This document shows, piece after piece, positions 25,511 to 26,140 of a stretch of 64,000 nucleotides of DNA; positions within the stretch are counted from its first letter, which is position 1, and the number at the start of each line of letters is the position of its first letter. The notes under the pieces are model-generated. The model was not told where the DNA came from and ran no database searches. It was given only the letters and a program-made list of their open reading frames with translations. The stretch is from Escherichia coli (GTDB taxonomy: Bacteria; Pseudomonadota; Gammaproteobacteria; Enterobacterales; Enterobacteriaceae): NCBI RefSeq assembly GCF_009931435.1, contig NZ_CP043414.1; one strand, 5' to 3'. The translations under genes and the position numbers were made by a program.

Positions 25511-25561
25511 AAAATAACACCCTGCTTAATTAACTGATGAGGAGCCTGGATTTCCGCTCTC

Positions 25562-25599
25562 ACTGAATTTTTATGCAAAATAAATGAGTTTTCATTTAA
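25562..25599 (-). promoter_or_regulatory. tandem ARG boxes (ArgR operator) in argG promoter
   Basis: ACTGAATTTTTATGCAAA and AAATGAGTTTTCATTTAA, 2 bp apart, match the TGAAT-n4-ATTCA ARG-box pattern upstream of argG. Confidence 0.75.
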
Positions 25600-25734
25600 T
25601 CATCTTTTATCGGTGACAGGAAGAGTTTAGTGTGTTTTTTGTAAAATAATGCGCTTAAGGAGGAGCAGTAGAGGGCAAAAGTATTCGACAAACGAAAGTG
25701 AACTGGATATTCATTCACGCGATTAGCAATAAAT

Positions 25735-25764
25735 GTTGACAAAATGTGGCGTGGATCACTATAA
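25735..25764 (+). promoter_or_regulatory. metY operon promoter (consensus sigma70 -35/-10)
   Basis: TTGACA at 25735-25740, 18 bp spacer, TATAAT at 25759-25764. Confidence 0.75.
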
Positions 25765-25857
25765 TGCCTGCAGATTTTACGTCCCGTCTCGGTACACCAA
25801 ATCCCAGCAGTATTTGCATTTTTTACCCAAAACGAGTAGAATTTGCCACGTTTCAGG

Positions 25858-25934
25858 CGCGGGGTGGAGCAGCCTGGTAGCTCGTCGGGCTCATAACCCG
25901 AAGGTCGTCGGTTCAAATCCGGCCCCCGCAACCA
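25858..25934 (+). tRNA. metY: initiator tRNA-fMet (anticodon CAT)
   Basis: CGCGGGGTGGAGCAGCCTGGTAGCTCGTCGGGCTCATAACCCGAAGGTCGTCGGTTCAAATCCGGCCCCCGCAACCA; three G-C pairs in anticodon stem; heads the rimP-nusA-infB operon. Confidence 0.95.
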
Positions 25935-26056
25935 CTTTCCCTTAGAGTCCTTTTTCAAATATACTGTGAAGACTTCGGCCTTCGTAGTGGGATTTGAAAA
26001 AATCCTTCTGGAAAGTGCTCCAGACCGCAGTTGCGGTTATAGGGTTCAGTTATATA

Positions 26057-26087
26057 AAGCCCCGATTTATCGGGGTTTTTTGTTATC
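26057..26087 (+). terminator. intrinsic terminator/attenuator between metY and rimP
   Basis: AAAGCCCCGATTTATCGGGGTTTTTTGTT. Confidence 0.75.
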
Positions 26088-26140
26088 TGACTACAGAATA
26101 ACTGGGCTTTAGGCCCTTTTTTTATGTCTTGGGGGTGGGC

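Follow-up and report, generated by a model that had tools for sequence, protein, structure and literature searches.

Layered control elements between argG and the metY-rimP-nusA-infB operon in an Escherichia coli genome

Organization and conservation of the locus

The sequence studied here is a 64-kb stretch of Escherichia coli DNA (contig NZ_CP043414.1 of assembly GCF_009931435.1), referred to as the window; window coordinates are used throughout. The corresponding K-12 MG1655 coordinate is obtained by subtracting the window coordinate from 3344147, a conversion which was checked at six landmarks. Between argG and rimP the window carries what we are highly confident is the divergent argG / metY-rimP-nusA-infB control region of E. 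coli, in which several layers of control are arranged one after the other. Features, their significance and conservation, and Rfam membership were computed in this work, while transcription start sites, terminator names, RNase III processing, the effects of ArgR and CRP, and feedback by NusA were taken from the literature. The genes of the locus are as follows.

24167-25510, minus strand: coding sequence of argG (argininosuccinate synthase), an open reading frame (ORF) of 447 amino acids, annotated as argG by RefSeq in K-12 and the closest strains and divergent from metY
25858-25934, plus strand: metY, initiator tRNA-fMet, identified as tRNA-Met(CAT) by ARAGORN and as tRNA by Rfam (61 bits)
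26141-26593, plus strand: coding sequence of rimP, TTG start, 150 amino acids, with the start annotated by RefSeq in K-12 and the closest strain
26621-28108, plus strand: ORF of NusA
28133-30805, plus strand: ORF of IF2 (infB)

When a 751-bp query was compared with complete E. coli genomes, matches were found in 5425 of 5426; most of the query was present in 5418 of them, always annotated argG / tRNA-Met / rimP. Identity of at least 99% over the query was reached in just 20 of the 5425 genomes. Alignment with K-12 MG1655 gave approximately 98% identity over 691 bp. From the -35 hexamer of promoter P-1 through the rimP start, a single tRNA base differs from K-12, and outside the tRNA about a dozen substitutions are present, all of them within 25540-25735, in the stretch that separates the ARG boxes from the P-1 -35 hexamer. 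The ARG boxes, promoters P-1 and P0, the leader and both terminators show no difference from their K-12 counterparts. One-to-one correspondence with the K-12 region argG-metY-rimP(yhbC/p15a)-nusA-infB holds for the promoters and terminators as well as for the RNase III coordinate and the start of rimP; the differences are confined to the tRNA base and the substitutions just mentioned.

Promoters directed toward metY and rimP

Three promoters are oriented toward metY and rimP.

25736-25765, plus strand: promoter P-1, with -35 TTGACA (25736-25741), an 18-bp spacer, -10 TATAAT (25760-25765), discriminator GCCTGC and +1 A at 25772; 12/12 match
25814-25842, plus strand: promoter P0, TTGCAT-17-TAGAAT, scored 9/12 by the promoter scan in a register that is off by one base
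25960-25965, plus strand: -10 element TATACT of promoter P2, with the 5' end at 25971, just after metY and within the RNase III stem

The P-1 sequence TTGACA-18-TATAAT is the lone 12/12 match in the window, with 0.02 such matches expected by chance. A preliminary description of the region, prepared from the sequence only, had placed a near-perfect σ70 promoter at 25735-25764; this promoter is real, lies one base further to the right, and equals P-1 as mapped by primer extension, including the +1 adenine, in K-12 and MRE600 (Brandi et al., PMC6511841). The sequence found here is the mapped one except for a strain-specific spacer base, and in their spacers the promoters follow the K-12 type, not the MRE600 type printed in that paper. 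Across eight relatives in which argG adjoins metY, the -35 hexamer is invariant and the -10 hexamer is either TATAAT or TATACT. The sequences of P0, which has likewise been mapped, and of P2 are given in the same study (PMC6511841). P0 is conserved in relatives, including those without argG at this place. Agreement of the earlier description with the mapped metY promoters was thus limited to P-1, with P0 and P2 omitted.

Arginine- and CRP-related elements on the argG side

The following operator-like elements were found between argG and metY.

25562-25579 and 25583-25600, minus strand: tandem ARG boxes spaced by 3 bp and spanning 39 bp, the predicted ArgR operator of argG, recognized by tandem consensus match and conservation
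25702-25719, minus strand: single third ARG-like box (candidate), 3 mismatches to the consensus, directly upstream of the P-1 -35 hexamer
25745-25760, plus strand: CRP-like site TGTGGCGTGGATCACT (candidate only), inside the P-1 spacer, 2 mismatches to TGTGA-N6-TCACA
25631-25646: CRP-like candidate TGTGTTTTTTGTAAAA, nearer to argG

ArgR operators consist of paired 18-bp imperfect palindromes 2-3 bp apart, and the arrangement with a 3-bp spacer is described in PMC4381063. The window was searched with two copies of the consensus TNTGAATWWWWATTCANW in this arrangement, and 25562-25600 was the top match, with five mismatches on the argG strand (1+4, the second box being degenerate with four); the best match in 30 random 64-kb sequences had eight. 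The site owes its significance to the tandem geometry, because a search with the single 18-bp box remained at chance level in 64 kb (8 matches versus 7.7 expected). The tandem boxes noticed earlier at 25562-25599 are therefore real, with their end corrected to 25600. They are located 52-90 bp upstream of the argG ATG, and the block is nearly invariant in eight Enterobacteriaceae genomes in which argG is adjacent. Upstream sequence was long enough for this comparison in 17 loci: all eight with argG adjoining metY have tandem boxes (5-8 mismatches), and all nine without argG beside metY lack them (12-13 mismatches).

In its two-box, 39-bp geometry upstream of an arginine biosynthesis gene the site resembles the other ArgR operators of the arginine regulon; it differs from them by its degenerate second box and by the possible third box about 100 bp away beside P-1. 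Arginine-dependent binding of ArgR and repression of argG have reportedly been described by Charlier (1992) and Krin (2003).

On its own, the third ARG-like box (25702-25719) is at chance level, and it is weakly conserved. Regarding such a box, Cho et al. (PMC4381063) cite Krin 2003 for stabilisation of ArgR binding by an upstream site at a distance of about 90 bp from the ARG boxes, in a sentence which names the hisJQMP upstream region. According to papers citing Krin et al. (2003), metY is down-regulated by cyclic AMP (cAMP)-CAP and by ArgR, and metY and argG share one CRP site, from which metY is repressed and argG activated. The position of the candidate box fits both the remote ArgR-stabilising site and the reported influence of ArgR on metY, and the box may correspond to such a site.

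A CRP consensus scan of the window gave matches at background level (180 versus 228 expected), and the left half of the candidate at 25745-25760 is not conserved outside Escherichia. For argG itself, the promoter scan of the minus strand yielded no promoter at 9/12 or better. A weak candidate, TTCCTG-17-TTAAAT (25622-25594), was read from conserved blocks and would overlap the ARG boxes. We infer exactly how the boxes lie over the argG -10 and -35 elements, and likewise where precisely the argG promoter and the CRP site are located.

A second tandem ARG-box-like site, at 45906-45944, ranked next in the window; with seven mismatches it is still below the random best of eight (30 sequences). It falls in a region annotated yraQ/yraR, for which most E. 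coli genomes show no more than 90-95% identity.

Initiator tRNA and RNase III processing

The identity of metY as an initiator tRNA gene, already recognized in the preliminary description, is borne out by the ARAGORN assignment and by the initiator hallmarks, namely the CAU anticodon, an anticodon stem with three consecutive G-C pairs, and the mismatch C1xA72; the hallmark sequences CGCGGGG...CCCCGCAACCA and GGGCTCATAACCC were read directly from the window. Position 46 of the tRNA (window 25903) is G46, in contrast to A46 in K-12, and the gene is otherwise identical to K-12 metY. G46 defines the tRNAfMet1 type, as found in E. coli B, whereas A46 of K-12 corresponds to tRNAfMet2 (PMC6511841). 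The metY gene is thus of the tRNAfMet1 type, although its promoters have K-12-type spacers.

Downstream of the tRNA a processing element was found.

25951-26001, plus strand: RNase III processing stem, a long stable hairpin (-16.7 kcal/mol) which contains P2

An RNase III site has been reported at K-12 coordinate 3318176 (Gordon et al. 2017, PMC5371410). It converts to window position 25971, which is inside the stem and is the same position as the P2 5' end. Two RNase III sites and the terminators t1 and t2 upstream of rimP are described in PMC6511841. With respect to control of the metY operon, the elements listed in the preliminary description match mapped ones, and the RNase III stem was left out of it.

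Tandem terminators of the rimP leader

Between the processing stem and rimP lies a leader with two terminators.

26023-26123, plus strand: rimP leader, Rfam family RF01770, a tandem-terminator attenuator (102 bits, model positions 1-102 of 102)
26056-26081, plus strand: terminator t1, stem 26056-26079 (AAAGCCCCGA/UCGGGGUUUU) with a U-tract (T-run to 26081); upstream terminator of Gammaproteobacteria
26104-26123, plus strand: terminator t2, stem GGGCU/GGCCC followed by U7; the universal GGGc...gCCC motif of rimP leaders

The RF01770 match is full length and far above the gathering score (102 bits versus 47; E=1.5e-18). It represents the 5' leader of rimP-nusA-infB, as it ends at 26123 and is followed by rimP from 26141 and then by nusA and infB. 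By terminator scan and folding, t1 consists of 10 pairs (-14.1 kcal/mol) with a run of six U, and t2 of five pairs (-7.4 kcal/mol) with a run of seven U. The hairpin upstream of rimP is the mapped t1 (PMC6511841). Naville and Gautheret (2010) described a near-universal GGGc...gCCC hairpin with a U-stretch in the rimP-leader and, in several Gammaproteobacteria, a tandem terminator upstream of it that carries the inverse motif, CCCg...cGGG (PMC2965389). Terminator t2 is that universal hairpin, and t1 is the lineage-specific CCCg...cGGG terminator. The supplement of PMC2965389 lists an E. coli leader whose sequence is the same as that of window 26015-26123. The leader agrees with RF01770 and with the rimP-leader of these authors in having both hairpins with their U-tracts (CCCG..CGGG and GGGC..GCCC) directly upstream of rimP. 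Nothing material sets it apart; the Escherichia clade has U for C at one position of a conserved box (AGGGUUCAG), and its potential long-range helix (see below) is longer than in most genera.

For comparison with other bacteria, a scan with an exact pattern anchored solely on t1 and UUUUUGUUAU was run with one genome per species and returned at least 120 loci. Among the matches listed, 50 were true leaders (Enterobacterales, Vibrionales, Alteromonadales) and about 70 were unrelated terminator-like sequences; the leader set is a sample biased to leaders retaining UUUUUGUUAU. Across 35 distinct leaders the stems of t1 and t2 were 93-99% paired, with 98.6% of cells paired in t1, and the four G-C pairs of t2 were invariant. 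In ten sampled diverse relatives the RF01770 score was 78-96 bits, and a tRNA was located upstream in each. Further Rfam matches (STnc430 on the minus strand, RsmY, and rimP on the minus strand) were far below their gathering scores and were dismissed as terminator-shaped noise.

A published RNA 3' end at K-12 coordinate 3318065 (Adams et al. 2021, PMC7815308) corresponds to window position 26082, the base after the U-run of t1. For t2, no published 3'-end coordinate was found. The preliminary description had proposed a hairpin terminator at 26057-26087 and, from it, partial termination or attenuation feeding rimP-nusA-infB. The hairpin is t1, and the published 3' end lies next to its U-tract. 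Attenuation is supported by the RF01770 match and by the published attenuator, and the proposal was incomplete in that t2, the universal half, had been overlooked.

It might be argued that the hairpins merely end transcription of metY and that rimP-nusA-infB is expressed independently of them, without attenuation. Terminator t1 has the strength and the U-run of a canonical terminator, an internal promoter (P2) exists downstream of metY, and RNA coverage drops approximately 22-fold across t1 (DirectRNA-seq, 4269 reads upstream versus 196 downstream), a value which is inflated by abundant tRNA reads upstream and is not a measure of termination efficiency. However, the P2 start at 25971 precedes both t1 and t2; transcripts from all three promoters must therefore pass both terminators, and no promoter is known in the 17 nt that separate the end of t2 from the rimP start codon. 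Moreover, the tRNA precursor is linked to mRNA, and the operon transcripts rise when NusA-dependent termination is reduced (PMC6511841). Read-through transcripts from metY to rimP have already been reported, and the terminator motif upstream of rimP is kept in bacteria with a different context (PMC2965389). Independent expression of rimP-nusA-infB is, in our judgement, very unlikely.

Another explanation considered was that the terminated leader RNA, beginning at P2 or at the RNase III cut and ending at t1 or t2, acts as a small RNA, for example as a ProQ-bound regulator or sponge. The rimP leader is found among attenuator-derived RNAs associated with ProQ in Salmonella (PMC5391140), the leader is highly structured (z-score -4.8), and conservation extends outside the stems, e.g. 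to AGGGUCCAG and UUUUUGUUAU. Yet the literature found reports no target or phenotype of such an RNA, and cis-regulation explains the conservation equally well. A function of this kind is improbable, and it would be compatible with the attenuator model.

Model of the divergent control region

NusA has been proposed as the likely effector of the rimP-leader attenuator (PMC2965389), and it regulates the entire operon, its own expression included (PMC6511841). Combined with the elements described above, this leads to the following model. In the leftward direction, arginine-bound ArgR would repress argG via the two tandem ARG boxes that overlap the promoter region, and argG would in addition be activated by cAMP-CRP, as stated in the literature. 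In the rightward direction, transcription would start at the consensus promoter P-1 with its GC-rich, stringent-type discriminator, at the weaker P0 just before metY, and at P2 just after it. In the primary transcripts the initiator tRNA would be fused to the mRNA. RNase III cleavage within the long stem after the tRNA would free the tRNA precursor and leave a 5' end which coincides with the P2 start. All three transcript classes would then meet t1 and t2 in the rimP leader before rimP, nusA and infB are reached, and partial termination would set the expression of the operon. NusA, an enhancer of hairpin-dependent termination, is the proposed feedback effector, a mechanism which for E. coli is a proposal of the literature.

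The central elements of this region are already known. By these elements, the supply of one initiator tRNA gene, of NusA and of IF2 would be set and coupled to arginine and carbon status, and the region is a textbook case of multi-layer control in which divergent promoters, co-transcription of tRNA and mRNA, RNase III processing and a tandem-terminator attenuator are combined. It also has value as a positive control, given that mapped elements were recovered from raw sequence alone. In comparison with other autoregulated leader terminators (the S10 leader, NusA-dependent terminators), the rimP leader differs in having tandem terminators; it is not known to encode a leader peptide, and the effector role of NusA is a proposal.

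Several points weigh against the model in this form. Apart from the limited meaning of the coverage drop at t1, the 3' end at K-12 3318065 is included in a list of bicyclomycin-sensitive regions (Rho score 2.97; downstream reads increasing from 196 to 481), and a rimP fusion was unexpectedly lower in expression in a rho mutant (PMC7815308). In view of these two results, termination at t1 may not be purely intrinsic. The present strain departs from K-12 by a dozen or so substitutions between the ARG boxes and P-1. Finally, neither of the two CRP-like candidates, 25745-25760 and 25631-25646, was accepted as the CRP site, both of them being weak and poorly conserved.

Bicyclomycin sensitivity at 26082 is unexpected for a canonical intrinsic terminator.

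A candidate long-range helix that could compete with t2

Folding of the leader revealed a possible further layer, formed by two segments on either side of t1.

26043-26055, plus strand: candidate 5' strand of a helix, consisting of the conserved box AGGGUUCAG plus UUAU (Rfam consensus AGGGUCCAG)
26098-26110, plus strand: candidate 3' strand of the helix, AUAACUGGGCUUU, which overlaps the 5' arm of t2

In the minimum-energy fold of the leader, AGGGUUCAGUUAU (26043-26055) pairs with AUAACUGGGCUUU (26098-26110) over 13 bp, so that t1 is enclosed by the helix and the 5' arm of t2 is taken up by it. With nascent RNA whose end was set at 26111 or 26116, the helix is part of the best structure (-37.9 and -38.4 kcal/mol, respectively), whereas for the full-length leader the fold with t1 and t2 is best (-38.8 kcal/mol). 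The two folds are nearly isoenergetic.

Pairing statistics of the helix were obtained from 35 distinct non-Vibrio leaders. In the 8-bp core, 95.7% of cells were paired and both strands were almost invariant. In the 5-bp extension, 74.6% of cells were paired, and four pairs were changed on both sides. Compensatory changes in the extension comprise UUAU/AUAA in the Escherichia group, UUAC/GUAA in Salinivibrio, AA/UU in Paraglaciecola and UUG/CAA in Pectobacterium. The covariation score was reached by none of 500 shuffles, a control which ignores the relatedness of the sequences, and controls in which the strands were slid against each other were 34-59% paired.

These results bear on the possibility that the leader is an RNA switch, in which the box AGGGUYCAG (26043-26055) and the 5' flank and arm of t2 (26098-26110) pair into a t2 antiterminator and the balance of the two folds is shifted by a factor, for instance NusA. 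The 13-bp helix in the minimum-energy fold, its advantage in nascent RNA, the high pairing of the core and the double-sided changes in the extension speak for such a switch. On the other hand, the near-invariant strands of the core could reflect protein binding or the terminator rather than pairing. The incompletely paired extension is absent in several genera, and several genera have one extension pair only. In Vibrio, the box finds its best partner in UGCU(U)GG, about 12 nt upstream of t2 and without overlap with it. The helix has perhaps been described before, as Naville and Gautheret (PMC2965389) mention a 'clear potential anti-terminator', albeit for the upstream terminator. The switch is accordingly put forward as a tentative idea which we hold to be doubtful. 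Equally speculative is its extension to operon control, according to which the helix, formed by the box and a further 3-4 nt, would be exclusive with t2 in Enterobacterales, would be formed first after read-through of t1, and would serve as the antiterminator through which NusA or another operon product autoregulates rimP-nusA-infB. Still, a candidate helix competing with t2 offers a concrete model, testable by mutation, of how the leader would read feedback by NusA, and the conserved helix in competition with t2 is possibly a new point.

An antiterminator for t1 was considered as well. Pairing of GGGU of the box with the 5' arm of t1 gives merely 4-5 bp, and this candidate was set aside.

Start of rimP

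The preliminary description correctly had rimP initiated by a TTG codon, yet the start that it implied, at 26129, is 12 nt early compared to the RefSeq start at 26141. A G-rich, Shine-Dalgarno-like run is located at 26131-26139 before the TTG at 26141, while the sequence upstream of the first in-frame TTG at 26129 is merely U-rich. In Salinivibrio and Enterovibrio, an ATG is found at the position aligned to the rimP TTG.

Directly after the U-tract of t2, a short out-of-frame ORF (ATG TCT TGG GGG TGG GCT TGT CCA CAT TAG; 26124-26153) overlaps the rimP start. Its sequence is highly conserved in Enterobacterales; it is also the ribosome-binding region of rimP, and the conservation may be unrelated to the short ORF.

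A tRNA-Leu relic and the position of argG

One additional feature was found between the P-1 start and P0.

25783-25812 (30 bases), plus strand: tRNA-Leu 3'-end relic within the P-1 transcript

In a comparison with window 21991-22084, the relic (GTCCCGTC-TCGGTACACCAAATCCCAG) aligned with the 3' end of leuU (21991-22077), an intact tRNA-Leu gene 3.7 kb upstream. Directly before P0-metY, Pantoea and Photorhabdus carry an intact tRNA-Leu gene, with which the relic also aligns (loci L033 7356-7510 and L009 5464-5620). The block between leuU and the relic contains a 552-amino-acid ORF and argG. The flanking repeat of the tRNA 3' end, together with the arrangement in Pantoea and Photorhabdus, makes this block look like an old insertion between leuU and metY. 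This suggests that argG was inserted between the two tRNA genes, which is possibly a new point; in that case P0 would represent the ancestral promoter between the tRNA genes, with P-1 located at the junction.

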